Positions 26,682 to 53,061 of a stretch of DNA of 64,000 nucleotides are shown piece by piece. Positions within the stretch are counted from its first letter, which is position 1. Each line of letters starts with the position of its first letter. Position numbers and translations under genes: made by a program. The DNA is from a virus (taxonomy: Duplodnaviria > Heunggongvirae > Uroviricota > Caudoviricetes). The stretch lies in the IMG/VR virus record IMGVR_UViG_3300028887_000087. One strand, written 5' to 3'. The notes below the pieces were generated by a model. It worked only from the letters and a program-made list of their open reading frames with translations. It did no database searches and was not told the origin of the DNA.

Positions 26682-28754
26682 ATGAGTGAAAGATTTATTG
26701 AGGTAAACGGCCATAAGCTTTATCACATTCGTGAAAGTGCTTTGCGTTTATCAAACAATGATTACAAGCTTCTTAATGAAAATGAAATCCCAACAGAGTT
26801 AAAAGAATCGAGAGCATATAAAGCAAATGTAGGCAAACGCTTTACAGAGTCTGAAACTACAGGTGCTTTGAAAGCTGCTATCAAACTTCGTGAAGGTACA
26901 ACAAATCTTCAGGAAAGAGCAGTTTTCGATAATGTTATCAAGAAACTCCGTGAGGAAGGCATTTCTTCAGAAAGAAAGCTTTGGAAATTTCCAGTATCAA
27001 GATTCGGTAATGTAAACGGCAACGGTCGTATTTATACTGAACAGTTGTGGCGTAATGTTATCAACAATCAAAGAGATACTTGGCAAGGTGGTTGTGGTCT
27101 TGCAGATCACCCAATGGACGACGCTGACCCAGGACAGTTCAAGACATCAGCTATTGTTTGGCTTGATATGATTATTGATACTGCCAACAAACTTATCTGG
27201 GCTATCGGTACATTCGTTGGCGAATATGGTCGTCTTGCTCAGGAAATCATTGAAGCAGGTGGACGTGTAGGTTTCAGTTCATCAGGATTTGGCGAAACAC
27301 TTTCTGATGGTAAAACTGTTGACCCAGATACATATATCATTGAAAGAGTGGCAGACATCGTAACAAATCCGTCACAGTCAGTTTTCGGTGACATTTCTTC
27401 AGAGCAGTCATATAACCCTGGGAATGTTGAATATTCAAAGCAAACTAGGGAGTCTGTTGAAGTCTCACCTAAATCAAAGATTATAGAAGGAAAGGAAAAA
27501 CATATGAAAGTAGATGCAGTAAATATGGACGAAGGCAAGACAGCTGCTCCTGAGACAAAACTCGAGGAAGGCAAAGTTGCTAATGTAGGACCTGCTACAC
27601 TCTCAAAGCTTGAAAGAAAAGTAATTGAGAAGCAGGTTGAGTCGATGTTGAATGAAGCTGACAACTCAGCTAACCCAATGGAAAAGCTCACAGAAGTAAA
27701 CGAGCTTCTCAAACTTGTTAAAGAGTCTAACGACGAAGAACTTATCAACAAAGTTCAGGAAAAACTTGAAAAGACTCACGCCGAACTTACAGCACTTGTT
27801 GAGTCAGCTGCTGCTGCAACAAAAGAGTTTGGTGACCTCAACGAAATGGTTGAAAACACAAAGAAGAATCTTCAGATTGGTGTTCTTCTTAACGAACAGG
27901 TTGCTGATTATAAGGAACTCTGCGAAGGCTTGACAACTCGCAACCGCGAACTTGCAAAGCAGAATGCAATCCTTGAGTCTAAACTTGCACTCAAAGAAAA
28001 CCACATTGCAAAAACTGAAGAAACAGTTAAAAATGAAAAGATGGCTGAGGAAAAGACTGTTGCTGATTTGAAAGCAAAACTTGAAGAATCAGAGTCAAAA
28101 CTTGCTGAAGCTGAAATGAAAGTTGCTTCTCTTACAAAAGGCAACAAAAAGATGGAATCTGATAACGGCGTATTGAGAACTCGTCTCAACCACGTTATGA
28201 GCAACCTCAAGATTGCTAACGAAAATATTGAAAAGCTCACAAAAGAAAACACAACACTTCTCGAAAGCAAGAACACATATCGTCAGAAGGTTATCCGCTT
28301 ACAGACAACTATCAAAGAAAACGAAGCAACACTTGCTGCTGAAAGACAGAAGTTTGAAGAGTATAAACAGATGAACAAGCCAAAGCTTGACTTTGAGCCT
28401 GCACAGGTTGAAGCTGTTTCAAAATATCTCAACATCCGCGAGAGCAAAGGCCTTGCAGTTGAAAATTATTGGAATGACCTCGTATCACAGTACGGCGAAG
28501 CAGTTAAGCCATTCGAGCGCCAGATTCGTGGTGCAAAAACATACCGCGAAGCATTCGATGCATTTATGAAATATTTGCCAAGAATTGACGAATCTGCAGG
28601 ACAGGCTGAAGCAGCTGCTTGGGATGAAGGTGTTGGTACATACCGCGAGAGACAGCAGAATCTCGAAGATGCAGGTATGGAAAAGATGACTGAGGACATC
28701 GATGAAATCAACGCAATCGAGCTCGAAAATATGAGAAAAATGGGATTGATGTAA
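26682..28754 (+). CDS. 690-aa protein: N-terminal globular domain + long E/K/A-rich coiled coil; possible prohead protease/scaffold-like
   Basis: GGGAG RBS; ~300 aa heptad-like EKLxxE repeats; function inferred only from architecture. Confidence 0.55.
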   Translation: MSERFIEVNGHKLYHIRESALRLSNNDYKLLNENEIPTELKESRAYKANVGKRFTESETTGALKAAIKLREGTTNLQERAVFDNVIKKLREEGISSERKLWKFPVSRFGNVNGNGRIYTEQLWRNVINNQRDTWQGGCGLADHPMDDADPGQFKTSAIVWLDMIIDTANKLIWAIGTFVGEYGRLAQEIIEAGGRVGFSSSGFGETLSDGKTVDPDTYIIERVADIVTNPSQSVFGDISSEQSYNPGNVEYSKQTRESVEVSPKSKIIEGKEKHMKVDAVNMDEGKTAAPETKLEEGKVANVGPATLSKLERKVIEKQVESMLNEADNSANPMEKLTEVNELLKLVKESNDEELINKVQEKLEKTHAELTALVESAAAATKEFGDLNEMVENTKKNLQIGVLLNEQVADYKELCEGLTTRNRELAKQNAILESKLALKENHIAKTEETVKNEKMAEEKTVADLKAKLEESESKLAEAEMKVASLTKGNKKMESDNGVLRTRLNHVMSNLKIANENIEKLTKENTTLLESKNTYRQKVIRLQTTIKENEATLAAERQKFEEYKQMNKPKLDFEPAQVEAVSKYLNIRESKGLAVENYWNDLVSQYGEAVKPFERQIRGAKTYREAFDAFMKYLPRIDESAGQAEAAAWDEGVGTYRERQQNLEDAGMEKMTEDIDEINAIELENMRKMGLM

Positions 28755-31174: not shown

Positions 31175-31195
31175 ATTATTTTTTGGAGGTTGCAA

Positions 31196-32830
31196 ATGAT
31201 GATGGTATTTGCGATTGCGGGAGGAGCAACACTGTTCGTTCTCCTTTTGATTATGTTCTTTGTTGGTTATTTCAAAGCTCCAACAAACAAGTGTTATGTT
31301 ATTTCAGGTTTGAGAAAGACAGCCCGTAAAGTTATCGGTAAGTCCGGTTTCCGTATTCCGTTCCTTGAACGTAAAGATGAACTTACACTCGATTTGATTT
31401 CAGTCGATGTAAAGACACAGGAAGCTGTTCCTACTGCTGAATGTATCAATATTTCAGTTGATGCTGTTGCAAATATTAAGATTGGTACTTCTGAAGAAGC
31501 CTTGGCAAAAGCTGCACAGCACTTCTTAAATAAAGATGCTCGTGACATCAATGCAACTGCCCGTGAGGTTCTTGAAGGAAACTTGCGTGAAATTGTTGGT
31601 ACAATGTCTTTGAAGGCTATGATGAATGACCGTAAAACTTTTGCGGAAGCCGTTCAGCAGAATGCCGTTCCTGACTTGGACCGTATGGGTCTCGAGATTG
31701 TATCTTTCAATGTTCAGAACTTCAGTGACGAGCAGGGTGTAATCAACAACCTCGGTATTGACAATATCGCAACAATTCAGAAGAATGCTTCTATTGCAAA
31801 GGCAAATGCTAACAAGGAAGTTGCTGTTGCAGAAGCAAAAGCTCGTGAGGAAGCAAACGATGCAAAGGTTGCAGCAGATACAGCAATTGCTGAAAAGAAC
31901 AACGCTCTTGAAGTTCGTAAAGCTGAACTCGAAGCTGCCCGCTTGAAGGAAGTTGCAAAGTCTGAAGCTGCAGGTGCTATCGAAAAGGAAACACAGCGTA
32001 AGACAATCGAAATCACAAAGCAGAATGCCGAAATCGCCCGTCTTGAAAAAGAGACTGAGTTGAAGGAACAGGAAATCGCAATCAAGGAAAAGGCTCTTGA
32101 TGCTGAAATCAAAAAGCAGGCTGATGCTGAAAAGTATGCTGCACAGACAAAGGCTGATGCTGAACTTTATGAAAGAACAAAGGCTGCTGAGGCTGAAAAG
32201 ATTGAACGCGAACGCAATGCGGAAGCAAATCTTATTGCTCTTCAGAAGAAAGCTGAAGCTGAAAAGTACGAACAGGAAAAATCTGCTGAAGCTTTGATTG
32301 CAAAAGCTGATGCTGAAAAGAAAGCAAAGGTTGCAGAAGCCGAAGGTCAGAAAGCTCTTGCTGAAGCAATTCAGGCAAAGGGTGAAGCTGAAGCTGCCGC
32401 TGTAAAGGCAAAGCTCCTTGCTGAAGCAGACGGTATCAAACAGAAGGCCCTTGCTGAGGCTGAAGGTTTGAAGGAAAAAGCTGAAGCTATGAAGCAGTAC
32501 GGTGATGCTGCTAAGATGCAGATGGAACTTGATACTTTGAAAGTTCTCTTTACACAGTTGCCTGAGATGGCAAGAGCTGCAGCAGAACCTTGGAGCAAAG
32601 TTGGAAATGTCACAATCTATGGTGGCGGAAAAGACGGTTCAAGTGGTGAAATGCTTACAGGCAACATCACAAAGACAATCACACAGGTTGCAAGCGGCTT
32701 GAAAGACAGCCTCGGTATCGACCTTGGAAGTGTAGTATCATCAATGCTAGCAGGTAAACTTGCAGGCAAAGAACTCGGCGCTGCTCTCGATGCTGCAACA
32801 AAGTCAACAAAGAATCCAAAAAGTGAATAA
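31196..32830 (+). CDS. flotillin-like SPFH/band-7 family membrane protein
   Basis: N-terminal TM helix, SPFH-like domain (PFLERKDELTLDLISVDV...), ~250 aa EA/K-rich flotillin-type coiled-coil repeats; GGAGG RBS. Confidence 0.75.
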   Translation: MMMVFAIAGGATLFVLLLIMFFVGYFKAPTNKCYVISGLRKTARKVIGKSGFRIPFLERKDELTLDLISVDVKTQEAVPTAECINISVDAVANIKIGTSEEALAKAAQHFLNKDARDINATAREVLEGNLREIVGTMSLKAMMNDRKTFAEAVQQNAVPDLDRMGLEIVSFNVQNFSDEQGVINNLGIDNIATIQKNASIAKANANKEVAVAEAKAREEANDAKVAADTAIAEKNNALEVRKAELEAARLKEVAKSEAAGAIEKETQRKTIEITKQNAEIARLEKETELKEQEIAIKEKALDAEIKKQADAEKYAAQTKADAELYERTKAAEAEKIERERNAEANLIALQKKAEAEKYEQEKSAEALIAKADAEKKAKVAEAEGQKALAEAIQAKGEAEAAAVKAKLLAEADGIKQKALAEAEGLKEKAEAMKQYGDAAKMQMELDTLKVLFTQLPEMARAAAEPWSKVGNVTIYGGGKDGSSGEMLTGNITKTITQVASGLKDSLGIDLGSVVSSMLAGKLAGKELGAALDAATKSTKNPKSE

Positions 32831-35527: not shown

Positions 35528-36034
35528 GTGACAGAAGCACAAATCTTCGCCGAGATTGAAAAAATCGGCGGAGTAAGAAAAGTATACAAATCGACAAGGG
35601 AGCTTCAGAAGCTTTACGGCGGCACGAAAAAGTTTAGTGTTTTAGCTGAAGCTTTGAAGTATTGCGGAAATCCTTGTCATATTTATGGTGTCTCTTGGCA
35701 AGAAGCACAGAAGAAAGGATATAAACAATATGTTCTTAAAGATGGGCTTATTGATTTCTTTGCAAGTAGTTGGTACTCTGCAAGCCACGCAACTTTTTAT
35801 GCGCCGCCGCTCGTTGAGGTACTTGATGAAGTTGTAGAGTTTTTGAAAACTTTAGGACCTAATTACGAAGATTATATTGGATGGACTTCTTGGGACAATG
35901 GCAAGACTGCGTACTCACACAATCGCGACAAATTGCCAAAAGAAGACTGGTTCAAAAAGAAAAGATATTGTCTTGAAGGTGTACTTAATGTTCTTAAGTC
36001 ACACGATCTTGTTATTGAAAAGGAACTTGATTAA
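35528..36034 (+). CDS. hypothetical protein (168 aa, GTG start)
   Basis: AGGAG RBS before GTG 35528. Confidence 0.5.
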   Translation: MTEAQIFAEIEKIGGVRKVYKSTRELQKLYGGTKKFSVLAEALKYCGNPCHIYGVSWQEAQKKGYKQYVLKDGLIDFFASSWYSASHATFYAPPLVEVLDEVVEFLKTLGPNYEDYIGWTSWDNGKTAYSHNRDKLPKEDWFKKKRYCLEGVLNVLKSHDLVIEKELD

Positions 36035-36162
36035 TGGCTCCACTTGAAATGTTATGTGAACGCTGTGGTTGGAATTACGATGTTGTATGTACAGCTGCTG
36101 TTATCACTGTGGTAGTTTTAAGCTTACTCTTTGAATATCTAATTAACAAAAGGAAAAAATAA
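36034..36162 (+). CDS. possible small hydrophobic peptide (42 aa)
   Basis: TAATG coupling; MAPLEMLCERCGWNYDVVCTAAVITVVVLSLLFEYLINKRKK. Confidence 0.3.
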   Translation: MAPLEMLCERCGWNYDVVCTAAVITVVVLSLLFEYLINKRKK

Positions 36163-36163
36163 A

Positions 36164-37888
36164 ATGGGTGCAACAACTTTCTCTGCGATAAACAAAGTTT
36201 GTATGGTTGTGTATCGCAAAAATAAAATAGAAATTCCTGACTCAAAAGAGATTACTCAGCTTATGGAGTATTTTCATATTGAAAAGGAAGAAGCAATACT
36301 CTTTGCTTATTTTACTTATCGAAAGATTGAAGAAAGTTGTGCTTATTTTACGCTTGAAGACTTAAACCGCGACGTTGATGTTTCAATGACAGAAACACTT
36401 TCTTATATTCCTACAATCGAAAACTTGCTTAAGAAAGGTTTGTTCTGCTTAAGAGACAAAATAAAGTTTGACCCAAATGTTCAGAAAGTTGACAGATGGA
36501 CAGCTTTCACAGTTGATGAAGAACTTATTGACTTGATTACTTATAATAAGCCAATTGAAGATTATAAGCCAACTTATTCAACTAAAGTTTACAATGCGGT
36601 TGACTTCATTTCATCAATTTACAATCTCCCAAAAAGAATGTTGCGTTCAAAATACAGTATGTCTCACCACGTTGCGCCTTATATGAAAGACCCTTGGGTT
36701 AAAAAGCTTGTAAACGATTTGGTTGATATGGGTGACGGAAGAGGCAAGAAATGTGAGGATGCTGATAATAGCGATATTATCATAGTCGACCCAATGGGAT
36801 CTTGGACAAACTTCCTTCACTTTTGTATGCTTGCTCGTGAGTTGTGGACAGAAAAGACAGCATCAGTAAAAGGTGTGTTCTCTGATTACGATGTTTCAAC
36901 AAACGATATTATTTATGAACTTAATCAGATAAAGACAGGAAAGTCTGTTCTTATTCAGAAAGAATATTTTGAATTGGACAAGACTGATATTGCCGATAAT
37001 ATTGAAGTAATATGGGGACCTAGAGTTCTCAAGGCTTTTGAAGGCTACGAAGACTTATTGCTTCAGGAAAGCTCAGGCAAAGAATTGCAGAAAATTGAGT
37101 TTAAGGACATTAAGCCAAAAAACTTATATTATAACGAATCTAATGAAAAAGACATCGAACGTCTTGAAAGTATTATGAAGGAAGAAAATTACCTTCAGTT
37201 GAGAAAGCGTCTTGACGAAAAGGGATTGCCAAAAGGCCTCACAGTACTTTTATACGGAGCACCTGGGACAGGTAAAACTGAAACAGTTATGCAGCTTGCA
37301 AAAAAGACAGGACGCGATGTGTATCATTTGAATATTGAACAAATAAAAAGTTGTTGGGTGGGTGAATCTGAAAAGAACATCAAGGCTATCTTCAAATCTT
37401 ATTACGCATCAAAAGCAAAGATTAAGCCTATACTTCTTTTCAATGAAGCTGATGCCATTATTTCAAAAAGAACATCAGTAGACGGCTCAAATGCAGCAGT
37501 GACAAAGATGGAGAACGCAATTCAAAACTTGCTTCTTGAGGAACTCGAAAAGTTTGACGGTATTTTTATTGCAACGACTAACCGCGCCACTGACATTGAC
37601 TCTGCATTCGACCGAAGACTCCTTTTCAAATTGAAGTTCGAAAATCCGAACGTACCTGTGAAGGTAAAAATTTGGAAGGACCGTTTGGACTGGCTTGACG
37701 ACAATGATGCAAACAAATTAGCAGAACGTTATGACTTATCAGGTGGACAAATTGACAACATTTATCGCAAGTCAGAAATCGACTATCTACTCTACGGCAA
37801 AAAGCCGAGTGTAGATGAATTGCTTGATTTCTGTAAGAAAGAAAAGTTAGGAAATGAAGGCAGTTCTAAAATAGGATTTTGCAACTAA
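36164..37888 (+). CDS. AAA+ family ATPase (SpoVK/CbbX-like AAA domain at C-terminus)
   Basis: Walker A GAPGTGKTE, Walker B LLFNEAD, sensor IFIATTNR, arginine finger FDRRL. Confidence 0.8.
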   Translation: MGATTFSAINKVCMVVYRKNKIEIPDSKEITQLMEYFHIEKEEAILFAYFTYRKIEESCAYFTLEDLNRDVDVSMTETLSYIPTIENLLKKGLFCLRDKIKFDPNVQKVDRWTAFTVDEELIDLITYNKPIEDYKPTYSTKVYNAVDFISSIYNLPKRMLRSKYSMSHHVAPYMKDPWVKKLVNDLVDMGDGRGKKCEDADNSDIIIVDPMGSWTNFLHFCMLARELWTEKTASVKGVFSDYDVSTNDIIYELNQIKTGKSVLIQKEYFELDKTDIADNIEVIWGPRVLKAFEGYEDLLLQESSGKELQKIEFKDIKPKNLYYNESNEKDIERLESIMKEENYLQLRKRLDEKGLPKGLTVLLYGAPGTGKTETVMQLAKKTGRDVYHLNIEQIKSCWVGESEKNIKAIFKSYYASKAKIKPILLFNEADAIISKRTSVDGSNAAVTKMENAIQNLLLEELEKFDGIFIATTNRATDIDSAFDRRLLFKLKFENPNVPVKVKIWKDRLDWLDDNDANKLAERYDLSGGQIDNIYRKSEIDYLLYGKKPSVDELLDFCKKEKLGNEGSSKIGFCN

Positions 37889-37893
37889 CTAAA

Positions 37894-38898
37894 ATGACAG
37901 AGAGGTTAAACAAGTACCTAGCATTTTCCACTTGCGGGGCAGGTATGTTGGCAAACACAATTGGGCTCATCTCAAGGCTGAATTATTTTGACGGCGGTCT
38001 TCTTTATTTTGTAAACATCGCATCTACAGCTTTTTCACTTTTTTGTATTATTGCCTTGGGAGCAATCTTTTTTAGGAGAAAAGAGTATACAAAGTACATA
38101 AGCGCAATCGTTATAATTACCGCAGCAGTAAATTTTCCGATAACTTTTTTGACAAATCAAAGTAATATATTTATGTTCTATCTTCCTATGATGGGAACAG
38201 CAATAGGTTTGCTTTCAATTGAAAATTGGAAAAAGTCAGTTGTTTGGGGTTCGATTGTTTTAGCAGAAGATACAGCAATGATTTTCTTGAAACATTACCT
38301 TGGTTTGTATAATGATTGGTGGGCATCACATTGGATAAATTGTTTCGGAGCAATTATTTCAACTTTCTTATTCTCTGCAATTGTTGTATCACTTACACTT
38401 AAAGCTTTCAGAGATACAAACAAAAGATTGAGTAAAGAAGCTGAACACGACCAACTTACAACAGTTTACAACAGATACAAAATGGACCAAGATATTAAGT
38501 CAAAACTTTATAAGTATGCTGCTATGATTGATATTGACTGGTTCAAAAAAGTTAACGATACTTATGGACACAAAGCAGGTGATAGAGCTTTGCAGCAATT
38601 AAGTCAATCGTTATTAAGATATGTGACAGATGACTTCCGTGTATATCGTTACGGTGGAGAAGAGTTTTTGATACTTTGCCGCAGCGATGAAAAAGATTTT
38701 CTTGAAAGACTTGATATGATTTGGGAAGACCTTGAACTTACATTCTGTTTAAGACAAGGCGAAAAATTGAGTGTTTCAATAGGCGCAGCTTTTTCAGACA
38801 AATCTCATAGGCTTATCAACTTAGCAGACGAAAATCTTTATAAAGCAAAAAATAACGGTCGTCATCAAGTTTGGTACAACAATAATAAACTTTACTAA
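37894..38898 (+). CDS. membrane-anchored GGDEF-domain diguanylate cyclase
   Basis: ~6 N-terminal TM helices; FKKVNDTYGHKAGDRAL; YRYGGEEF; LYKAKNNGRHQV. Confidence 0.8.
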   Translation: MTERLNKYLAFSTCGAGMLANTIGLISRLNYFDGGLLYFVNIASTAFSLFCIIALGAIFFRRKEYTKYISAIVIITAAVNFPITFLTNQSNIFMFYLPMMGTAIGLLSIENWKKSVVWGSIVLAEDTAMIFLKHYLGLYNDWWASHWINCFGAIISTFLFSAIVVSLTLKAFRDTNKRLSKEAEHDQLTTVYNRYKMDQDIKSKLYKYAAMIDIDWFKKVNDTYGHKAGDRALQQLSQSLLRYVTDDFRVYRYGGEEFLILCRSDEKDFLERLDMIWEDLELTFCLRQGEKLSVSIGAAFSDKSHRLINLADENLYKAKNNGRHQVWYNNNKLY

Positions 38899-38923
38899 AA
38901 TCCTCTTTATATTATTGTTGTAA
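38885..38923 (+). promoter_or_regulatory. class-1 phage promoter-like bipartite motif
   Basis: aataaacttt-N12-tttatattattgttgtaAGGAGGattatctATG. Confidence 0.5.
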
Positions 38924-38935
38924 GGAGGATTATCT

Positions 38936-40417
38936 ATGACAATTAAAGATCAGTTCAAAGCAAAAGTCCTCGAGCCTATTGATGAAGCAGGCTTCAAAGC
39001 TTACTTTGTAGGCGGTTGTGTTCGTGACTTTTTGATGGGCGTTGAGCCTCACGATTACGATATTTGCACAACTGCAACCCCTGAAGAATTGCACAAAATC
39101 TTTGATAAGTTTTCAAATGTTTCAGCAAACAGTGAGCCATTCGGTGTTACGATGCCGCTGATTGAAATTGATGGAAAGCTTGAAGAAGTTGAAATTGCAA
39201 CTCTCCGCAAGGATATTACAAAAGGACGACATCCAAAAATCGAGTTTACTCGTGACATCAAAGAAGATGCAGAACGCAGAGATTTTACTGTGAATGCCCT
39301 TTACGAAGATATTGACGGTTTTATTTTTGATATGGTTGGCGGCGCTCAGGACATCAAAAACAGAACATTACGTTTTGTTGGAAATGCTCAGGACCGCATC
39401 GATGAAGACCCATTAAGAATATTCCGTTTTGTTCGTTTCCTTGCTTCAAAAGGTTTCAAGTCAGCTTACACAAAAAGAGAAGTTCTTGATTGGAATTTTT
39501 CTTTTACTGAAGTATCTGCTGAAAGACAGCTGAAAGAGTTAGAGAAAACTTTTGCAGGTAAGTTTTTATTCCCAGATACTTGGGAGTTTGTTTTAGCAGC
39601 AAGAGTTTTAACTCCGTTAGGATTAACTTCGATTATGGTTGACCTGCGAAATATTGTTCAGTCTTGGATGTGGCACGCTGAGGGTTCAACTTGGACAAAA
39701 GACGGAAAGGATTTCAAAGGCGACGAGATAACAGATTTTGACGGTTTTGTTCCTGCAACCCACGGAACTGCTTGGGACCATACACTGTTAGTTATGAAAA
39801 GAATGGCAGAGTTATCAAAAGACTTAGACGAGCACACTCGTTTCGTAATGATGATGGCTGCTTTCTTACACGACATCGGTAAGGCTCATTCAAAGCTGGG
39901 CTTAAAAACAAATACTTTCAAAATTGGAAGCAAAGAGTTTACTGAGACAATTCCTAAGGTTTCTGACCACGATGTTGTTGGCGCTCCTATTGCATACGAT
40001 ATTTGCAAAAGTATCGGTATGACAAACGATGACAGTGAGACAGTTCGCGAGCTGGTTGGCTTACATATGCGAGCTCATCAGTTAGGTGATATGAAATCAA
40101 AGAAGGCAATCTGGGAGATTACTTCAAACCCTATTTTCGATAAACTGGTTATGTTAGCAAAGGCTGATGAGTCAGCTTGTGTTAAGACAGTTGACGATGC
40201 TTGGGTTGGTATTGAGAAATCTTTAGAGAAGCCTATCATTCAGTCAGTTATCGGTAAGCCAATGCCTAAGCCAATTATTACAGGTCAGTTCCTGATTGAC
40301 AAAGGCAGAACTCCTGGGCCAAAGTTTAAGCATATCTTAGATGTTGCATTAAAGATGCAGATTGACAAGGATATGACTGATGCTGAGGCAATTTACAAAA
40401 TTGTGAAAGGATGCTAA
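38936..40417 (+). CDS. cca: CCA-adding enzyme / poly(A)-polymerase-family tRNA nucleotidyltransferase with HD domain
   Basis: GGCVRDFLMG...DYDICT head motif; RRDFTVNAL; HD motif AFLHDIGK. Confidence 0.8.
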   Translation: MTIKDQFKAKVLEPIDEAGFKAYFVGGCVRDFLMGVEPHDYDICTTATPEELHKIFDKFSNVSANSEPFGVTMPLIEIDGKLEEVEIATLRKDITKGRHPKIEFTRDIKEDAERRDFTVNALYEDIDGFIFDMVGGAQDIKNRTLRFVGNAQDRIDEDPLRIFRFVRFLASKGFKSAYTKREVLDWNFSFTEVSAERQLKELEKTFAGKFLFPDTWEFVLAARVLTPLGLTSIMVDLRNIVQSWMWHAEGSTWTKDGKDFKGDEITDFDGFVPATHGTAWDHTLLVMKRMAELSKDLDEHTRFVMMMAAFLHDIGKAHSKLGLKTNTFKIGSKEFTETIPKVSDHDVVGAPIAYDICKSIGMTNDDSETVRELVGLHMRAHQLGDMKSKKAIWEITSNPIFDKLVMLAKADESACVKTVDDAWVGIEKSLEKPIIQSVIGKPMPKPIITGQFLIDKGRTPGPKFKHILDVALKMQIDKDMTDAEAIYKIVKGC

Positions 40418-40421
40418 TCCT

Positions 40422-40453
40422 CTGTCTCCTGCTTCGGTGGGAGACAGCTTTTA
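40422..40453 (+). terminator. Rho-independent terminator (CTGTCTCC-loop-GGAGACAG + TTTT)
   Basis: 8-bp stem with TTCGG-containing loop, T-rich tail. Confidence 0.65.
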
Positions 40454-40456
40454 TAT

Positions 40457-40819
40457 ATGAATATCAGAATACTTGGAACACAAATTTTAGAATCTCTTGG
40501 GTTTAAATATGAAAAAGAGTTTGTAAACTTTACCCAACATCGAACAGGCCACGGTATGATATTTTGGGAAAAAGATCATCGGTGGGTTTTTAGTGTAAGT
40601 GACTTTGGGGCTTTACAGGGTCCTAAGAATAATATTCAAAGGTTTTATTGCTGTTGTAAGTTAGACAGCGGTGAAGATGAAATGGGCTTTATAGGACATT
40701 ATGAAATCGCATATAACAGAACGCTTAATTGGAATTGTAAATTGCTTTCTATGTATGAGATTGATGTTGATGTTGCAAAGCATATGATATTAGCAGCAAA
40801 TGATGCAGCAAAGGGGTAG
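40457..40819 (+). CDS. hypothetical protein (120 aa)
   Basis: ORF. Confidence 0.45.
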   Translation: MNIRILGTQILESLGFKYEKEFVNFTQHRTGHGMIFWEKDHRWVFSVSDFGALQGPKNNIQRFYCCCKLDSGEDEMGFIGHYEIAYNRTLNWNCKLLSMYEIDVDVAKHMILAANDAAKG

Positions 40820-40820
40820 T

Positions 40821-41195
40821 ATGTATATAAATACACGCAATGCAATAATAGGTGATATAGCAGTTCCTGCACTTGATGAACTCGGTTTCGGAGAAACAAC
40901 TCCTGAGATTATTTCAACAAGCGGACACGAGGAAGGGTATGGCGCTCAGATTGTTTTAAGACTGCACACAGGAACTCCTAATGTATCTTGGCTTTGTTAT
41001 ATTGAAACAGACTTTTTAAATTTAGCTTTTCAACCTACAAAGTTGACAATGTATTGCGTTCTTACTGAACAACACGGTATGACATTTAAGGTGCTCGATA
41101 AAGCTGCTTACACAGTTTATGCAAAAGATATGAAGTTTGAAAAAGCTGAGGAGCAGAATCCTGAAATTGCAGCAAAGCTGTTTACGTTAAAGTGA
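40821..41195 (+). CDS. hypothetical protein (~124 aa)
   Basis: ATG 40821 after AAGGGG. Confidence 0.45.
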   Translation: MYINTRNAIIGDIAVPALDELGFGETTPEIISTSGHEEGYGAQIVLRLHTGTPNVSWLCYIETDFLNLAFQPTKLTMYCVLTEQHGMTFKVLDKAAYTVYAKDMKFEKAEEQNPEIAAKLFTLK

Positions 41196-44609: not shown

Positions 44610-45194
44610 ATGAAAGAGTTTTTTGTTAGTGACTTACATATAGGACACGAAAACTGTTTAAGATTTGACAACCGTCCTTTTAAGGACCTTGCAGAACAGA
44701 ATGAAAAAATGGTTGAAATTTGGAACAAAAGAGTAAAGCCTGAAGACCACGTTTGGATGCTTGGTGATATTCTTTGGTTTGCAAATAAAGAAAATGAAGA
44801 TGTACTTAAATCTCTCAACGGCAAAAAGTATCTCGTCACAGGCAATCACGATGGACGAATGCTTAAAGTCGGACATATCAAAAATCTTTTTGAAGAAATC
44901 CACGAAGGCTATCATAAGCTTCACGACAGCAAAGGTCGTACACTTATTCTTTCACATTACCCAATTATTCAGTTTGACGGCGTAATGCGTGGAAACATCC
45001 ATCTTTACGGACACATCCACGTTAACCCAAAAGATAACGCTTTTATTGAAAAGTGGAAGAAAGAATACGAAAAAGAAATGACAGGACAGGCTGGCAATTC
45101 ATTCAAAGTGAATATGTATAATGTAGGTTTTGCTGTTCCTTATATGGAATGGGGGCCAAAAACATTAGATGAAATATTGGAGGCAAACAAATGA
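44610..45194 (+). CDS. calcineurin-like metallophosphoesterase
   Basis: SDLHIGH, WMLGDI, VTGNHD, SHYP, GHIH motifs. Confidence 0.75.
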   Translation: MKEFFVSDLHIGHENCLRFDNRPFKDLAEQNEKMVEIWNKRVKPEDHVWMLGDILWFANKENEDVLKSLNGKKYLVTGNHDGRMLKVGHIKNLFEEIHEGYHKLHDSKGRTLILSHYPIIQFDGVMRGNIHLYGHIHVNPKDNAFIEKWKKEYEKEMTGQAGNSFKVNMYNVGFAVPYMEWGPKTLDEILEANK

Positions 45195-45700
45195 AACACT
45201 TTATCGTAATTGATATGCAGAATGATTTCTGCACAGGCGCTTTGAAAAACGATGCCGCTGTTGCAATTATACCACGCATTAAAGCGGAATTGCAGGCAGC
45301 AAAGGCAGACAGCGCAAACATCATCTTTACTCGTGATACACACTTTGACGGTTATCTTGAAACAGGTGAAGGTAAGCATCTCCCAGTAAAGCACTGTCTT
45401 CAGAATACAGAAGGCTGGGAAATTGTTCCTGAACTTAAAGAAGAGATTGATGACAAAACTACAGTCATTGACAAGCTTCACTTTGGCTACGACAACTGGG
45501 GCAATTACATCAAGCCTAACGATGAAATTACAATCGTAGGAACTTGTACTGACATCTGTGTTGTAAGCAACGCCCTTGCTCTCAAAATGATTGAAGGTGT
45601 TGAAGTAAAAGTAATTGCTGATTGCTGCGCAGGCCTTACTCCTGAAAGCAACGAAGCTGCATTGACAACAATGAAAATGTGTCAGTGCGAAATTGTATAA
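45191..45700 (+). CDS. pncA: nicotinamidase / isochorismatase-family cysteine hydrolase (PncA-like)
   Basis: VIDMQNDFCTGA, FTRDTHFDG, KHC, IVGTCTDICV, VIADCCAG match PncA catalytic D/K/C and metal-site motifs. Confidence 0.8.
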   Translation: MKHFIVIDMQNDFCTGALKNDAAVAIIPRIKAELQAAKADSANIIFTRDTHFDGYLETGEGKHLPVKHCLQNTEGWEIVPELKEEIDDKTTVIDKLHFGYDNWGNYIKPNDEITIVGTCTDICVVSNALALKMIEGVEVKVIADCCAGLTPESNEAALTTMKMCQCEIV

Positions 45701-45712
45701 GAGGTACACATT

Positions 45713-45925
45713 ATGAGCATCACAACTTATGACGACGATTTTATCAACAGAAAAGTTGAACAATATCAGAAGACCCGTTATAAAAGTGATGCTCACGGTG
45801 TTTACGATAACGAAGAAGATATTCGAGCAGAAGAAGAATACGACAACGGTTTTGAACAAGGAAGAGATGAAGGCTTCTTTGATGGTTATCTTCAGTGCTT
45901 AAAAGACTTAGGAATAAGAAAATGA
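45713..45925 (+). CDS. hypothetical acidic protein (70 aa)
   Basis: AGAGG RBS. Confidence 0.45.
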   Translation: MSITTYDDDFINRKVEQYQKTRYKSDAHGVYDNEEDIRAEEEYDNGFEQGRDEGFFDGYLQCLKDLGIRK

Positions 45926-46362
45926 GCGGCGGACATTTTTATAACAACAATCTTTCAATGAATCTTGAGCAACTCGAAAACGAATTGAGATGGCAAGGTG
46001 GAGCTTTCGATGAGAAAACTCAAAAAGCTCTTCGTGAATGCCTTAAAACAATTCGCAAAGCACAGGTTTGTTTGCATCGAGTTGATTATTTGTTCTCAGG
46101 AGACGACGGAGAAGATAACTTTATAGAACGCCTTGAAGAAGACCTTAAAGAGGTTGAAGAAAAACCTATTCCTGAGTTTGGAAAGCCTTGTTGTGAAAAC
46201 TGCAAATACAACGGAAAAGTTCAAGTACGTTATAAACAGTCTTATTACTACCGTGAAGGTGAACATAGTGATTATGTTGAAACGGGTTGTGAAAAGACTG
46301 AAGAAGATTGGCCTAACGGTGAACACTGTTATGGGTTCAAACACGTGGAGGATTGGGATTGA
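45922..46362 (+). CDS. hypothetical Cys-containing protein (~146 aa)
   Basis: ATG 45922. Confidence 0.45.
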   Translation: MSGGHFYNNNLSMNLEQLENELRWQGGAFDEKTQKALRECLKTIRKAQVCLHRVDYLFSGDDGEDNFIERLEEDLKEVEEKPIPEFGKPCCENCKYNGKVQVRYKQSYYYREGEHSDYVETGCEKTEEDWPNGEHCYGFKHVEDWD

Positions 46363-46461
46363 AAAACTTCATAAAGTTTATCAAGGTATCTCTTATATTG
46401 ATTTACCTTAAAATTACAAATGCAATTGACAGATGGAAGAGAAACAGACAGGAGAAGAAAA

Positions 46462-47265
46462 ATGACTAGTTTTGATACTTTTACAAATGAAGAAAGAATG
46501 AAGGACATTCACGATAAGATTATCGTTTGGATTAAGAACTTTTTTAATGACAAGAAAGGTCCTGCAGTAATTGGTATCAGCGGCGGAAAAGATTCAACAA
46601 TCTGTGCTGCTCTTCTTACTGAAGCACTTGGCAAAGACCGTGTAATTGGTGTAATGATGCCAAACGGTGAGCAGAAGGACATCTCTGACTCAAAGAAAGT
46701 TATCAGCACTCTTGGTATTCGTGAAATTGAAATCAACATCAATGGAATGTACAAAGACATCACATCAAGAATTGGTGATTGGTACGAAGGTGATGAAATA
46801 CCAAGTCTTTTCACAACAAACACTCCTGCCCGTCTTCGTATGGTGACTCTTTACGGAATTGCTGCAGTTTACGGCGGACTTGTTTGCAACACTTGTAATA
46901 AGTCTGAAGATTATGTTGGCTACAGTACAAAATACGGCGACGCTGCAGGTGACTTCTCACTTCTCAATCGTTTGACAAAAACTGAAGTTGTTGCACTTGG
47001 CGATTATATGAAATTGCCAAATGAACTTGTACACAAAATACCTTCAGATGGTATGTGCGGCAAGAGTGATGAAGACAATATGGGCTTTACCTATGAAGCA
47101 CTTGATACATTTATCTTGACAGGACTTCCTCCAAAGTCTGAGGAAGTTTTCAGAAAGATTGTCACAATGCATCACAATCCTAACACAAAATACAAACTTA
47201 TTGATATGCCTTCTGCTCTTGAAGAATTCATCCCTGATGCTTTCGACAGAGTAGCAGAATGTTAA
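46462..47265 (+). CDS. nadE: NH3-dependent NAD+ synthetase (PP-loop ATP pyrophosphatase)
   Basis: PP-loop VIGISGGKDST; ATG 46462 after AGGAG RBS. Confidence 0.8.
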   Translation: MTSFDTFTNEERMKDIHDKIIVWIKNFFNDKKGPAVIGISGGKDSTICAALLTEALGKDRVIGVMMPNGEQKDISDSKKVISTLGIREIEININGMYKDITSRIGDWYEGDEIPSLFTTNTPARLRMVTLYGIAAVYGGLVCNTCNKSEDYVGYSTKYGDAAGDFSLLNRLTKTEVVALGDYMKLPNELVHKIPSDGMCGKSDEDNMGFTYEALDTFILTGLPPKSEEVFRKIVTMHHNPNTKYKLIDMPSALEEFIPDAFDRVAEC

Positions 47266-47268
47266 TAT
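47261..47268 (+). promoter_or_regulatory. class-2 TGTTAATAT box 6 nt before ATG 47275 (leaderless candidate)
   Basis: aatgttaatattattttATG; no SD. Confidence 0.4.
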
Positions 47269-47274
47269 TATTTT

Positions 47275-48282
47275 ATGTTGGATTTCAGATTACTGCAAGA
47301 TGTTTTACCTAAAGCTTTTGCAAATATGGGACCCGTGATTGAAATCAATTGCGAGCAACCTACACAAAGTTTTGATTGCTTCAGCGGTCATTTTGAACGA
47401 CCGTTTGGGCAAATGCAGTACCACATAAAGTTTCTTTGTGGTTATATTGAAATGGGTGAAAACGAGCTTTGGGACAAAATAAGTCCTTATATTGAAGAAG
47501 AAAGCGATGACGAGGAAGTTGTCGAAGAAAATACGGAGGTTAATATGGACGTAAATGGAATGTTTGGAAAGTTCCTTAAGCCAATCAAGCCTGGGATGGT
47601 AAGAATTGGCCTTAATGGTGAACTTGCTGTAAAAAGTGGCTCAGGCTATAAAACTTACAACGCTAAAACAAAACAGCTTGTAAATGTTCAGGATTTCTGT
47701 TTCGATATTGGGCAGGATTTGTTTATTTGTGTTCCAACTGCAAAAGTAAAAGTTGGCGACATCATTGTTCTTGATGACCCAGACGCTCCTCAGGGAGTTG
47801 CACCTAAGTGTGTTACTGCTCTCGAAGACGGCAAGACAATCAAGGTTATGGACTACAGAACAAATGAAATTCAAACAATCGTGCCTGAGCGTCATTTCTT
47901 CCTTGGAAAGATGTTCTTCTACAACAAAATCCATTCTCTTATCCCAATCGGAGACCTTGCAGGTTCAAAAGGAACTGACAAGTTCGGTAAGCTTCTTGGA
48001 AAGATGGCTTTGATGAATGCATTTACTGGTAAAGGTTTCAACTTTGGTGGCGGCAGCGGAGACAGTGAAGGTAATGGCGGACTTAACGGTTTGGCTATGA
48101 TGGCTCTTTTCGGCGGCGGACTTTTTGGCGGCGGCGGAGACGATGATTTGTTCGACTTCTCAGGTATGTTCGACCTTGAAATCCCAGACGTTGATGTAAA
48201 CGGCGATGAAACACCTGAAGCAAAGAAAGCTCGCCTCAAGGCAGAACTTGCTGCTCTTGAAGCTGAAGAAGAGAAAAAATAA
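47275..48282 (+). CDS. hypothetical protein with Gly-rich/acidic C-terminus
   Basis: GGGSGDSEGNGG...GGGLFGGGGDDDLFDF tail. Confidence 0.5.
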   Translation: MLDFRLLQDVLPKAFANMGPVIEINCEQPTQSFDCFSGHFERPFGQMQYHIKFLCGYIEMGENELWDKISPYIEEESDDEEVVEENTEVNMDVNGMFGKFLKPIKPGMVRIGLNGELAVKSGSGYKTYNAKTKQLVNVQDFCFDIGQDLFICVPTAKVKVGDIIVLDDPDAPQGVAPKCVTALEDGKTIKVMDYRTNEIQTIVPERHFFLGKMFFYNKIHSLIPIGDLAGSKGTDKFGKLLGKMALMNAFTGKGFNFGGGSGDSEGNGGLNGLAMMALFGGGLFGGGGDDDLFDFSGMFDLEIPDVDVNGDETPEAKKARLKAELAALEAEEEKK

Positions 48283-48303
48283 AATAACATAAACGCCTTC
48301 ACT

Positions 48304-48322
48304 ATAACATCACTGATGTTAT
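48304..48322 (+). repeat. 19-nt perfect palindrome ATAACATCA-C-TGATGTTAT
   Basis: seen directly; intergenic, followed by TTTTG. Confidence 0.4.
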
Positions 48323-48353
48323 TTTGAAGGTTTAAATGTTATGGAGGTACAAT

Positions 48354-49268
48354 ATGGGTGGCGGATGCTACAGTGAAAGTTCTTTCAGCAGCTATGCAAA
48401 ATCAGTTGGCGCTGTAATGGATAATTGTGAAGTTGATGGCGTAAGAACACTTCGTCTCAACAATATGAAATATTCCCAGACATCTTTACATAGCGAACTT
48501 GACCCTAAGAGTCGTGTTCGTGAATGTTGTAATACAGAGGAACATCCTAATACAATGCCTGTTATCCTTGCTCTTGATGTGACAGGTTCAATGGGTTCAG
48601 CTTGTGATGAATGCGCTGCTTCTGTTGCAAACTTGATGAAGGATCTTTATGAAAAGTTTGAAGATGTTGAAGTTTGTGTAATGGGTGTAGGTGACCTTGA
48701 ATGTGATAGCTCGCCTCTTCAGGTTTCTCAGTTTGAGTCTGATGTTCGTGTTGCAAAACAGATGCAGGAAATTTATCTTGAAAAGGGTGGTGGCGGAAAT
48801 AGTTATGAATCATATACAGCTCCTTGGTATTTTGGTCTTTACCATACAAGATTGGATTGTTTCGACAAGCAGGGAAGAAAAGGCGTTATTATTACAATGG
48901 GTGATGAGCCGCTCAATCCTGCATTAAACAGAAGAGATGTTGAGCACTTCTTGGGCGTTGGATTGGAAGAGCAGACTGAAGTAAAAACAGACAAACTTTA
49001 CAAGGCAGCTTCAAAGAAGTTTGACATCTATCACATTTCTGTCGAAGACGACAGAACAAACTATAACAGCGACAGAACTTCTTACGAAGATCAGGTTGAT
49101 AAGTCATTCAAAGATGTTATCGGAGATGACCATTACCTTGTATCTTCAGTAAACGGACTTCAGAAGAACATCGTTAAATGTATTGAAAAATCATACAAGA
49201 AACGCGAAAGACTTACTGAAGAAGCCCCTGCAAAATCAAAGAAAGATAAATCTGAGGTTGAGTGGTAA
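48354..49268 (+). CDS. von Willebrand factor A (vWA)-like protein
   Basis: MIDAS-like LDVTGSMG; GGAGG RBS before ATG 48354. Confidence 0.5.
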   Translation: MGGGCYSESSFSSYAKSVGAVMDNCEVDGVRTLRLNNMKYSQTSLHSELDPKSRVRECCNTEEHPNTMPVILALDVTGSMGSACDECAASVANLMKDLYEKFEDVEVCVMGVGDLECDSSPLQVSQFESDVRVAKQMQEIYLEKGGGGNSYESYTAPWYFGLYHTRLDCFDKQGRKGVIITMGDEPLNPALNRRDVEHFLGVGLEEQTEVKTDKLYKAASKKFDIYHISVEDDRTNYNSDRTSYEDQVDKSFKDVIGDDHYLVSSVNGLQKNIVKCIEKSYKKRERLTEEAPAKSKKDKSEVEW

Positions 49269-49696
49269 TGATTAAAGGAATTCTTTATAAGCATAAACCT
49301 AATTACGTCCGCGCCTTCTATGTTGACAAAGAAGAGGCAAAAAGAAACGAAGATTATGTTTGCAAACTTATACAAGAGTTCCTTGGTCCCGCTTGGAATG
49401 TTTATACAGTAATTACTTCAGGCGGAAGAATGTGGCATATTTATCGAGATAACTGGGAAGGCCCAGGAAGCCGCAACTATTATGAAGACTTTTACAAAAG
49501 TTGGTTGTTGGTGAAAGAAGAATCAGATGCAGAAAGTGCAGATGATGTTTGCTTTACAGATTACCCATCTTTTTACAAACTTTATGAAGATGCTAAAGAA
49601 GATGAAATCGAGTATGTTGATTTGCCACAGCTTGATGATGAAAGTCCAAAAGAAATCTTTTATACACGAGACGGCGTCAAGGAGCTTGAATGGTAA
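49262..49696 (+). CDS. hypothetical protein (144 aa)
   Basis: coupled ORF. Confidence 0.45.
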   Translation: MVMIKGILYKHKPNYVRAFYVDKEEAKRNEDYVCKLIQEFLGPAWNVYTVITSGGRMWHIYRDNWEGPGSRNYYEDFYKSWLLVKEESDAESADDVCFTDYPSFYKLYEDAKEDEIEYVDLPQLDDESPKEIFYTRDGVKELEW

Positions 49697-49992
49697 AGAA
49701 GTATCTTAAAAAGCCTATAATGGTTGAAGCACTTGAATTTGATGGCAGCAATCTTGATGAAGTTAAAAGTTTTATCGAAGAAAGAAAGCGTAAGGCTGAT
49801 AAGTTGACAATTGTAGAATCTGATCTTGCAACATACGAGTATGAATTGATTTTACCAAACGGTCAGGGCATTGGCTTTAAGAAAGGTGACTTTCTTGTTC
49901 AAGGTGTTGATGGTTCAATTTACCCAGTACATAAAAACACTTTTTGGAAAGTTTACGAAACTCTTGATGACGATAATTATATAAGTTGGTAG
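49690..49992 (+). CDS. hypothetical protein (100 aa)
   Basis: coupled ORF. Confidence 0.45.
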   Translation: MVKKYLKKPIMVEALEFDGSNLDEVKSFIEERKRKADKLTIVESDLATYEYELILPNGQGIGFKKGDFLVQGVDGSIYPVHKNTFWKVYETLDDDNYISW

Positions 49993-49995
49993 AAA

Positions 49996-51078
49996 ATGAG
50001 TATTGATGTTGTAATTGGCGCAAATTATGGAGATGAAGGCAAAGGCCTCACAGTTGCTCGTATTGCAAAGCAGTATGACCCAAGACAAACTTTTGTTATT
50101 ATGGGTAATGGCGGTGCGCAAAGAGGACACTCTGTAATACACGATGGAAAACAACATATCTTCAAACATTTCAATTCTGCAACTCCATTAGGTGTTCGAA
50201 CATTCTTCAGCCCAGACTTTATTCTTGACCCTATTCAGTTCAATGTTGAAAAAGAGGAACTTAAAAAAGTTTACGGTATTGAGCCTATAGCAATTCGTTC
50301 TGCATCTTGTAAGTGGGTGACACCTTGGGACATAATGGCAAATCAAATGTTGCAAAAAGAAAATTGGACAGGCTCTTGCGGTATGGGTATCTGGGAAACT
50401 GTACTTCGTTATCGTAACGGCGTGTATATGGACTTTGATAGTTTTGCTGCTCGTCCACACGATGAACAAGTTGAGTTTCTCAAAAAGATTCGCGACTATT
50501 ACGAAGGTGTAAGAAAGATCAAAGTCAACCCAAAATACCGAACACCTTGGTATTCTGATATTCTTATTGAGCATTTCATAAGAGACTTTATGTCAATGTT
50601 TGAATGTTGCAAAGTTAGCCCATCATTCTTAAACTTGGCTTCAAAACTCCAGTCACAACATTTTATTATCGAAAATGGACAAGGACTTCTTTTAGGCGAT
50701 AAAGGATTTGATGATAAGGAAGCAACACCTTCAAATACAGGACTCCCATCATACATCGACTTGAAAGATGCAAATGTTCATTTCGTAACACGACCTTATA
50801 TTACTCGTCACGGCTCTGATACTTTTGTTGGCCACAAACTTGATTGTGACCTTAATAAGTCAACTGAAATCAATCAGTACAACGAATGGCAGCACGACTT
50901 CTTTTACGATTACCTTGACTTGGCTGATTTGAAAAAGAGATGCGATGAAGAAGTCGCAATGCATCATATCAAAAGATATACAGTCGAAGTCACTCATTGT
51001 GATGAACTTGACCGTGAAGTTGAGTTCAAAAATATTTTTCACGGAAATTGTAATTTTTACGATTCAAATAAACTTTAA
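49996..51078 (+). CDS. adenylosuccinate synthetase (PurA)-family protein, divergent (PurZ-like candidate)
   Basis: P-loop GANYGDEGKG; NGGAQRGHS (cf. GGHNAGHT); GSCGMGIWETVLRY (cf. GTTGRGIGPAY); ENGQGLLLGD (cf. EGAQGTLLD); KLD motif. Confidence 0.7.
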   Translation: MSIDVVIGANYGDEGKGLTVARIAKQYDPRQTFVIMGNGGAQRGHSVIHDGKQHIFKHFNSATPLGVRTFFSPDFILDPIQFNVEKEELKKVYGIEPIAIRSASCKWVTPWDIMANQMLQKENWTGSCGMGIWETVLRYRNGVYMDFDSFAARPHDEQVEFLKKIRDYYEGVRKIKVNPKYRTPWYSDILIEHFIRDFMSMFECCKVSPSFLNLASKLQSQHFIIENGQGLLLGDKGFDDKEATPSNTGLPSYIDLKDANVHFVTRPYITRHGSDTFVGHKLDCDLNKSTEINQYNEWQHDFFYDYLDLADLKKRCDEEVAMHHIKRYTVEVTHCDELDREVEFKNIFHGNCNFYDSNKL

Positions 51079-51104
51079 TCAAAACCCTTTTATATTATAA
51101 ACAA
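51067..51104 (+). promoter_or_regulatory. class-1 phage promoter-like bipartite motif
   Basis: aataaacttt-N12-tttatattataaacaaATG. Confidence 0.45.
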
Positions 51105-51701
51105 ATGGAATATATAGACTATAACGTAAGAGACGCCTTTAAAACAAAGGCAACTGAAAACGGCAGAAGCACTGATTACATCAATTTATATATGCTCATA
51201 TATGAATTCAGCGATGACCGCCACGGCTACGATTGGGACAAAAGAGAAAAGTACTTTAACGACCTTCAGGATTTCGTAAAACATTTTGAAGGCGAAGGTA
51301 TTGTAGGCAGTCAAAGTGATTTAAGGGATTGGGACTTTGAAAGTCAGCAACCTTTTTATCAAAAAGGTGATATTGAGTGCGTCAGCATAATGGCTCCCGA
51401 AGATGACTTCTTTGTAAGAAACCTTCTTGATGCATTAAATCCTCTCGATTATGCAATTGAATACAGAAAAATGGCTCCTCGCAAAATTACAAAATTGCCA
51501 AAAGACGCATACGGAACTGAAGTCGAGATTGGCGATATTGTTGTTTGGGAAGGCGCTGCACACAGAGTTAAAAGTATCATTTCCGAAATAACGATAAACA
51601 AGAAAAGAATGTTTACCCGTGATTGTGTTGTTGTAAGAACAAATAACCCAAACAAGAAACTTGGCTGGGTTGAATATATTGATAACGGCAGAAAAGAATA
51701 A
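51105..51701 (+). CDS. hypothetical protein (198 aa)
   Basis: ORF after class-1 motif. Confidence 0.5.
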   Translation: MEYIDYNVRDAFKTKATENGRSTDYINLYMLIYEFSDDRHGYDWDKREKYFNDLQDFVKHFEGEGIVGSQSDLRDWDFESQQPFYQKGDIECVSIMAPEDDFFVRNLLDALNPLDYAIEYRKMAPRKITKLPKDAYGTEVEIGDIVVWEGAAHRVKSIISEITINKKRMFTRDCVVVRTNNPNKKLGWVEYIDNGRKE

Positions 51702-53050: not shown

Positions 53051-53061
53051 GGAGTTTTTAA

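Follow-up and report, generated by a model that had tools for sequence, protein, structure and literature searches.

Cyclic di-GMP (c-di-GMP) governs motility, adhesion and surface polysaccharides, and these traits determine how a phage adsorbs and spreads. Phages depend on host c-di-GMP, as in the case of the receptor glycan of phage N4, and small phage peptides inhibit host cyclases. Genes for diguanylate cyclases (DGCs) are already known from phages by annotation, and a phage gene of this kind is not surprising. Here we describe a predicted DGC gene that encodes six transmembrane (TM) helices followed by a GGDEF domain (6TM-GGDEF) and is located at positions 37894..38898 on the + strand of IMG/VR virus record IMGVR_UViG_3300028887_000087 (Duplodnaviria; Heunggongvirae; Uroviricota; Caudoviricetes). 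The whole stretch of 64,000 nucleotides that was analysed is referred to as the window. We consider it fairly likely that the gene encodes a catalytically competent DGC of a jumbo phage of ~300 kb from the gut of ruminants or other animals, that it comes from a 6TM-GGDEF family of Treponema chromosomes, and that it would raise host c-di-GMP during infection. What is new here is the 6TM family that is shared or exchanged with Treponema, its recurrence in several jumbo-phage lineages and the missing inhibitory site (I-site).

GGDEF genes of Bacillus phages SP-15 and G, of a Mu-like Cariaco Basin virus and of Pacific viromes have been proposed as auxiliary genes that act in signalling (PMC5977210, PMC12484599, PMC7785012). 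Gp150 of phage SP-15 is 38% identical to the window protein across the catalytic domain, but it is a stand-alone GGDEF protein of 183 amino acids (aa) encoded within a carbohydrate-synthesis cluster. Gp350 of phage G, annotated as 'probable diguanylate cyclase DgcQ', has 254 aa. Both are too short to accommodate a 175-residue 6TM module together with a GGDEF domain, and the GGDEF genes of SP-15, phage G and the 6TM family look like independent acquisitions. Seven PHROG families, including 5594 and 14602, match the window protein, and its fold matches in BFVD include annotated phage GGDEF proteins. No experimental characterization of a phage-encoded DGC was found in the literature searched; two large surveys of animal-gut jumbo phages do not mention DGCs, and in a comparative review of jumbo phages c-di-GMP appears in the references only.

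The closest full-length solved structure is ImcA of Pseudomonas aeruginosa (PDB 8wcn), the top Foldseek match (363 columns), which likewise has six TM helices ahead of a GGEEF domain, joined to it by a short linker. ImcA forms homodimers via its TM domain, without which it is not active, and a partner inhibits the enzyme via TM and PAS contacts (PMC10904736). At ~21% identity, a root-mean-square deviation of 8.2 A and a TM-score of 0.48, the likeness is architectural only and homology of the TM regions is not established; ImcA is also chromosomal and controlled by the iron sensor IsmP, whereas no such partner is present here. PleD, WspR and DgcZ share the catalytic domain and the active-site (A-site) residues, but these enzymes are activated via receiver or zinc-binding domains and not via a TM module. 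The 6TM-GGDEF proteins of Treponema (T. bryantii WP_338370351.1, designated P0042, and Treponema sp. MCH5282235.1, designated P0022) resemble the window protein in length, TM module, GGEEF motif and the lack of an RxxD I-site. They differ from it in that they are 29% identical and lie in a housekeeping-gene setting.

Gene structure and predicted architecture

The open reading frame (ORF) extends from an ATG at 37894 to a stop at 38898 and encodes 334 aa. An in-frame TTG is located upstream, at 37879, where it falls within the 3' end of the gene before it; because all orthologues begin with MTE(K/R/W)LNKY, the true start is 37894. A preliminary description of this DNA had reported an ORF at 37894-38898 with a GGDEF domain preceded by about six N-terminal TM helices, and both points agree with our analysis. 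The motifs quoted there (FKKVNDTYGHKAGDRAL, RYGGEEF and LYKAKNNGRHQV) are all found in the 334-aa protein, which matches the Pfam GGDEF family (PF00990) with an E-value of 4.2e-30 and 105.1 bits (cut-off 23.8) over profile positions 1-160 of 161, and the NCBIfam model TIGR00254 with 106.1 bits (cut-off 37.4). Searching the PDB sequences with phmmer retrieved diguanylate cyclases only, including DosC, DgcR, WspR, PleD and DgcZ. The named DGC equivalogs of NCBIfam (SiaD, DgcN/YfiN, GdpS, AdrA, DgcQ and others) gave no match above threshold, scoring 52-102 bits against cut-offs of 252-500 or more.

An AlphaFold2 model of the 334-aa protein was built from a 51-sequence alignment. Its mean predicted local distance difference test score (pLDDT) is 90.8, with values above 90 within the GGDEF domain. 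The model has six helices before that domain, at residues 2-30, 36-61, 65-87, 91-109, 112-135 and 141-183, the last of which also forms the stalk that leads to a canonical GGDEF fold. The PDB matches of the model in Foldseek are all DGCs, with more than 100 chains at E <=1e-3 and target-normalised TM-scores of up to 0.82. By hydropathy, four of the segments are strongly hydrophobic and the remaining two helices are weaker.

The six-helix membrane module with its short loops comprises residues 1-175 (37894..38418, + strand), as delineated by the AlphaFold2 helices, by conserved residues and by the profile comparison with Treponema proteins given below. The stalk helix and the GGDEF domain, predicted to be cytoplasmic, comprise residues 176-334 (38419..38895, + strand), as delineated by invariant columns, by a table of motifs and by alignments to DosC and DgcR. 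The charge distribution agrees with an N-in/C-in topology in which the GGDEF domain is cytoplasmic and no outer loop exceeds 10 residues; the features in question are an N-terminus rich in Arg and Lys, the loops RRKEYTK and NWKK, and the segment that follows TM6, KAFRDTNKRLSK. The six-helix module is probably a scaffold for dimerisation or sensing. Its conserved residues, in alignments of both 17 and 51 sequences, are G17, N21, G24, F81, P82, F93, Y96, G105 and F160.

Active site, expected product and selection

The two alignments consist of full-length homologues with identities down to 25%. In them, D213/D215, N221, D230, R252, the motif G254-G-E-E-F258, K319 and R323 are invariant or nearly so. 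The segment D213-I-D215-x-F-K corresponds to metal binding, while N221 and D230 correspond to guanine recognition; these two we take to be the equivalents of PleD N335 and D344. The preliminary description had called the GGEEF active site intact, and this is borne out: all residues for GTP condensation are present, conserved and under purifying selection. The phage protein is probably an active diguanylate cyclase.

Position 230, which sets the specificity for guanine, is Asp in all of the sequences of the larger alignment (51/51). Hallberg et al. are said to have described in 2016 that Hypr GGDEF enzymes, which make cyclic GMP-AMP (cGAMP), carry Ser at this position. Since the specificity position is Asp, c-di-GMP rather than cGAMP is the expected product, and a Hypr or cGAMP-producing identity was ruled out by the canonical Asp230 in place of Ser.

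An RxxD I-site, which would be expected five residues ahead of GG(D/E)EF, was not found in the window protein, where positions -9 to -6 relative to GGEEF read TDDF. Within the 51-sequence set RxxD, in the form RKxD, is confined to the clade of P0013, P0016, P0017 and P0024. Enzymes of the PleD, WspR and DgcZ type reportedly carry an RxxD I-site and are product-inhibited, as Christen et al. are said to have found in 2006. By analogy with PleD and WspR, the missing I-site should leave the predicted enzyme without product inhibition.

Selection on the gene was assessed by pairwise Nei-Gojobori ratios of nonsynonymous to synonymous substitution (dN/dS), using the orthologues in four related contigs. 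The ratios are 0.07-0.23 for the whole gene; the half that encodes the catalytic domain has 0.05-0.12, and the membrane half 0.08-0.38. Purifying selection maintains both domains. In the comparison of the window with contig L002 (8709-9713), synonymous divergence is saturated in the TM half (proportion of synonymous differences, pS, of 0.75) and amounts to 0.33 in the GGDEF half (synonymous substitution rate, dS, of 0.44). This uneven divergence may be a sign of intragenic recombination or of differing codon constraints.

Distribution in phage-like contigs and Treponema

A whole-database search identified orthologues at 73-90% identity, followed by homologues at 46%, 38%, 37% and ~30%, all of which have 330-360 aa and the same architecture. 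When the TM module was searched by single-sequence phmmer, 12 cluster representatives matched among 1.84 billion; as a sequence family, the 6TM module is narrow. Named full-length homologues come from Treponema only. On the T. bryantii chromosome the DGC gene is found among genes for galactokinase, a Na/Ala symporter and MatE, and in a Treponema metagenome-assembled genome it is found among genes for an Iso_dh-family protein (isocitrate/isopropylmalate dehydrogenase), peptidyl-tRNA hydrolase and LuxS. Comparing the TM module alone between the phage and T. bryantii clades with hhalign gave a probability of 96.9% and an E-value of 1.6e-10 over 173 columns, so that the entire architecture is homologous, beyond the GGDEF domain alone.

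In a neighbour-joining tree the window protein forms one clade with P0001-P0011, P0013, P0016, P0017 and P0024. Every clade member that was checked has a phage-like context (P0002, P0007 and P0010, as well as P0005 and P0013 via their cluster members P0174 and P0176). P0043, which comes from a phage-like contig of 393 kb, clusters with chromosomal P0022 of Treponema (58% identity), and P0021 is placed next to the T. bryantii clade. The tree indicates at least two to three separate exchanges between phages and Treponema, and this gene phylogeny points to spirochaetes as the hosts. A single-protein scan of reference genomes returned generic GGDEF matches only (28-41% identity, from many phyla), with no prophage or close cellular copy and no host information.

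The 6TM-GGDEF family is present in at least five distinct types of large, mostly unannotated phage-like contigs, represented by L001, L085, L087, L091 and L096. L001, a contig of 66.8 kb, encodes a protein of 2121 aa that weakly matches the Gp10_C baseplate family, and includes two GGDEF genes, located ~10 kb apart at 10001-11038 and 20557-21038; in the second of these the GGDEF motif is intact and the I-site position reads KxxD. L085 and L086 carry RtcB, Band_7, DUF3310 and DUF2786, and L087 is a contig of 79.5 kb. In L091, a 367-kb scaffold, the DGC belongs to the sole clade that keeps an RxxD I-site and adjoins 15 tRNA genes and a tmRNA gene (tag DDEVYEMRAAA), which are located at 12777-19149, ~1.8 kb downstream of the 6TM-GGDEF gene. 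L096, a 393-kb contig, encodes a 3554-aa ORF, Thg1 and a RecA that may be intein-interrupted or split: RecA_N is spread over two ORFs (15535-18714) with a faint intein-splicing match.

Probable phage origin of the window

Relatives and gene content strongly indicate that the window comes from a phage, and the sizes of related contigs suggest a jumbo phage. Its substantial ORFs are all on the + strand and closely packed, the majority of its ORFs match neither Pfam nor PHROG families, and GC contents of 34-41% were measured. Over 16.2 kb the window shares 97.7% identity with the IMG/VR contig UViG_3300028832_000157; identity to three further contigs is 85-87%, with indels, and one of these is a scaffold of 301,281 bp, which carries L089. 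Homologues of the window NAPRTase (80-82% identity) are found on independent contigs of 288, 293, 293, 297 and 298 kb, and the convergence of these contigs suggests a genome size of ~290-300 kb. The best 120 matches of the NAPRTase are all metagenomic relatives, apparently related phages, and indicate no host. The window helicase best matches that of Bacillus phage G (42%), followed by Ralstonia phage RsoM2USA and by metagenomic phages of 640-735 kb. Recognisable cargo of the jumbo-phage type includes ThyX, a C5 methyltransferase, a CCA-adding enzyme, BspA-type leucine-rich repeats (LRR), a flotillin/SPFH protein and a Preiss-Handler NAD+ cluster. No integrase or repressor was recognised in the window, where most ORFs carry no annotation, and no tRNA genes were found in it. 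A megablast search of positions 36000-41000 against GenBank phages gave no match.

Proposed role and alternative explanations

In the reading that we favour, the DGC would be made during infection, probably at a low level, via translational coupling to the AAA+ ATPase gene upstream of it. It would enter the inner membrane of the host, with both termini on the cytoplasmic side, and dimerise via the six-helix module. The continuous helix of TM6 and stalk would position two GTP-bound GGDEF domains, and 2 GTP would be converted to c-di-GMP. With the RxxD inhibitory site missing there would be no product feedback, and host c-di-GMP would rise. Host c-di-GMP receptors would then shift the cell to a less motile and more adherent or matrix-producing state. 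The phage might gain local host density or spread within aggregates, altered or masked surface receptors or superinfection exclusion, or a host physiology suited to the long cycle of a jumbo phage. Our inferences concern the activity of the enzyme, its dimerisation via the TM module, the identity of the host and all of the downstream phenotypes; roles of a phage DGC in motility, biofilm and superinfection exclusion are plausible on purely inferential grounds.

If the enzyme is active, jumbo phages would rewrite the second-messenger signalling of their hosts, and the gene would provide a host-prediction marker for an uncultivated phage group. The 6TM-GGDEF family is a tractable test case, being small and conserved, having no feedback site, occurring in several abundant gut jumbo phages and having a cellular source in Treponema. 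A broader proposal, which we regard as unlikely, is that jumbo phages of gut spirochaetes have repeatedly captured and kept host 6TM-GGDEF cyclases, occasionally as two genes and mostly in forms that lack the feedback site, and that take-over of the c-di-GMP network is a core strategy of infection. Were this true, its uses could be the immobilisation of a highly motile host, envelope remodelling against competitors or the blunting of nucleotide-based immunity, and this would be the first virulent phage making c-di-GMP as an effector.

Several points weigh against the reading of an active phage cyclase taken from spirochaetes. An intact GGEEF motif is necessary but not sufficient for the predicted activity. 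Staphylococcal GdpS has retained GGEEF but reportedly makes no c-di-GMP; the GdpS model NF047872 gives a near full-length match to the window protein, albeit a sub-threshold one (90 bits vs a cut-off of 400). The TM module has conserved polar residues, which suggests that activity is regulated and not constitutive. No Shine-Dalgarno sequence was found before 37894. The window copy is only 29% identical to the Treponema proteins, and the putative spirochaete host is read from the gene phylogeny. Finally, capsid, portal, terminase and tail genes were not recognised in the 64-kb window.

A cyclase that is gated by a signal would be compatible with the polar residues noted above. Its 6TM module would sense a membrane or envelope cue or bind a partner, similarly to ImcA and IsmP, and c-di-GMP would be made only in a particular state of infection. 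The TM module is under purifying selection, N21, P82, Y96 and G105 are conserved inside its helices, TM6 is continuous with the stalk helix that leads to the GGDEF domain, and ImcA sets a precedent for regulation via TM and partner contacts. However, outer loops of <=10 residues imply that there is no periplasmic ligand domain, and no conserved partner gene recurs across the lineages examined. We regard signal gating as possible but tentative; it refines the explanation of an active cyclase and does not contradict it. An inactive membrane scaffold or receptor that acts via protein contacts, as in GdpS-like or degenerate GGDEF proteins, is improbable. Inactive GGDEFs normally lose catalytic residues, whereas here these are all invariant in homologues down to 25% identity, and the lowest dN/dS values (0.05-0.12) fall in the GGDEF half; the near full-length GdpS match, sub-threshold as it is, and a gene without a ribosome-binding site of its own are what this explanation has in its favour.

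Quite improbable, too, is a counter-defence or decoy enzyme whose product disturbs CBASS, type III CRISPR or Panoptes-like sensing, or which drains GTP. Second among the fold matches is 6d9m ('T4-Lysozyme fusion to Geobacter GGDEF'), which we take to be the Hypr GGDEF GacA, but the specificity residue of the window protein is the canonical Asp (D230) and not the Hypr Ser. Defence signalling does make use of GGDEF and Cas10-Palm enzymes, as in the case of Panoptes mCpol (PMC12657218), and the window holds a further apparent investment in counter-defence, its NAD+ synthesis cluster (PMC11662467). Interference with cyclic-nucleotide defence had been raised in the preliminary description and found no support: besides the canonical Asp, the DGC has no PADLOC match, its closest relatives are ordinary chromosomal Treponema DGCs, and the window has no sponge or nuclease partner. 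To our knowledge c-di-GMP is not a usual defence signal. The last alternative concerns the DNA itself, which might be a chromosome island, a megaplasmid or misbinned cellular DNA with an ordinary cellular DGC. The lack of recognised capsid, portal, terminase and tail genes in 64 kb and the giant ORFs without a match in phage databases would agree with such an origin, which we nevertheless hold to be very improbable. The genes are one-stranded, dense and mostly unknown, the identity to an IMG/VR viral contig is 97.7%, and independent assemblies converge at 288-301 kb; the helicase is closest to that of phage G and other jumbo phages, the cargo (ThyX, CCA enzyme, NAD cluster) is typical of jumbo phages, and neither ribosomal genes nor others of the cellular core were seen in the window.

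Neighbouring genes

The gene directly upstream (36164..37888, + strand) encodes an AAA+ ATPase of 574 aa (Pfam AAA, E 1.7e-24), and its stop is located 5 nt ahead of the DGC start. The 300-aa N-terminal region of this protein has no match, and its AAA+ domain resembles the models of the anti-phage ATPase IetA/IteA and of TRIP13 in a generic manner only, far below the family cut-offs (79 bits vs 510). The gene downstream of the DGC (38936..40417, + strand) encodes a CCA-adding tRNA nucleotidyltransferase with a PolyA_pol head and an HD domain (Pfam; NCBIfam PRK13299, E 4e-52), and is preceded by a strong AAGGAGG ribosome-binding site. The possibility that the downstream HD protein is an HD-GYP phosphodiesterase was ruled out by its identification as a CCA-adding enzyme (Pfam, PRK13299). 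A terminator-like hairpin with an 11-bp stem and a T-run (40422..40447, + strand) closes the block of AAA, DGC and CCA genes; it is the sole convincing site of this kind, and no terminator-like site was found between these three genes on the + strand. They probably form a single transcript, in which the DGC is translated by coupling to the AAA+ gene.

The adjacency of the AAA+ and DGC genes is kept in L002, L089 and L090, which belong to the ~300-kb lineage, but not in more distant phages, and relatives include one to three additional genes (DUF488, N6-methyltransferase) between the DGC and CCA genes. A general functional link between the DGC and the AAA+ ATPase was rejected, as their adjacency is limited to the ~300-kb lineage. 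No obligatory functional partner is seen, because this adjacency is lost in distant phages and extra genes precede the CCA gene. Searching the window with six-frame regular expressions and a scan of family hidden Markov models, and 31 small ORFs with Pfam, revealed no PilZ, EAL or HD-GYP domain and no second GGDEF; the targets of c-di-GMP are therefore presumably host proteins.

A flotillin/SPFH (Band_7) gene is located a few kb upstream of the DGC in the window (31190-32830) and in L089 (3671-5302). Band_7 genes are likewise located a few kb upstream of the DGC in a distant lineage (L085 7822-8730 and L086 2183-3091), in which the DGC is 37% identical. Their presence in both lineages could reflect a common membrane-microdomain theme or coincidence.

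Other content of the window

The NAD+ salvage (Preiss-Handler) cluster spans positions 45191-56062 and 60522-61769. It encodes an isochorismatase/nicotinamidase (45191-45700), NadE (46420-47265), NAPRTase (51661-53025, where the true start is probably an ATG that gives 435 aa), a NUDIX protein (54837-55472), an NMNAT-type cytidylyltransferase (55484-56062) and a cytidyltransferase-like protein (60522-61769). Preiss-Handler NAD+ clusters were already described in gastrointestinal jumbo phages (PMC11662467). ORF 49996-51078 encodes a PurA-like homologue of adenylosuccinate synthetase. A PurZ function and a Z-genome were considered for it, as it matched the PHROG '2-aminooxy adenylosuccinate synthetase', and were then judged less likely. 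Z-base DNA is not supported, because the NCBIfam PurZ model scores 19 bits against 300, the protein has a PurA-like GDEGKG loop, and its best phage matches are PurA-like genes of Vibrio phages and cluster-C mycobacteriophages.

Four very large ORFs, at 13202-19114 (1970 aa), 23803-26619 (938 aa), 26682-28754 (690 aa) and 57166-60039 (957 aa), may encode unrecognised virion or injected proteins. The ORFs of 1970, 690 and 957 aa have no Pfam or PHROG match and the one of 938 aa matches LRR_5 repeats only; those of 1970 and 957 aa had no tblastn match in 50,697 phage records. BspA-type LRR_5 proteins are encoded at 20383-21126 and 23803-26619 of the window and, in a distantly related phage-like scaffold, at 3811-6255 of L091. 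BspA-type surface repeats are common in Treponema and other gut anaerobes, and these proteins may act in adhesion or host recognition. At 546-2308, tandem small ORFs of ~110-120 aa, several of which are 22-32% identical to the first, suggest a locally amplified family of paralogues.

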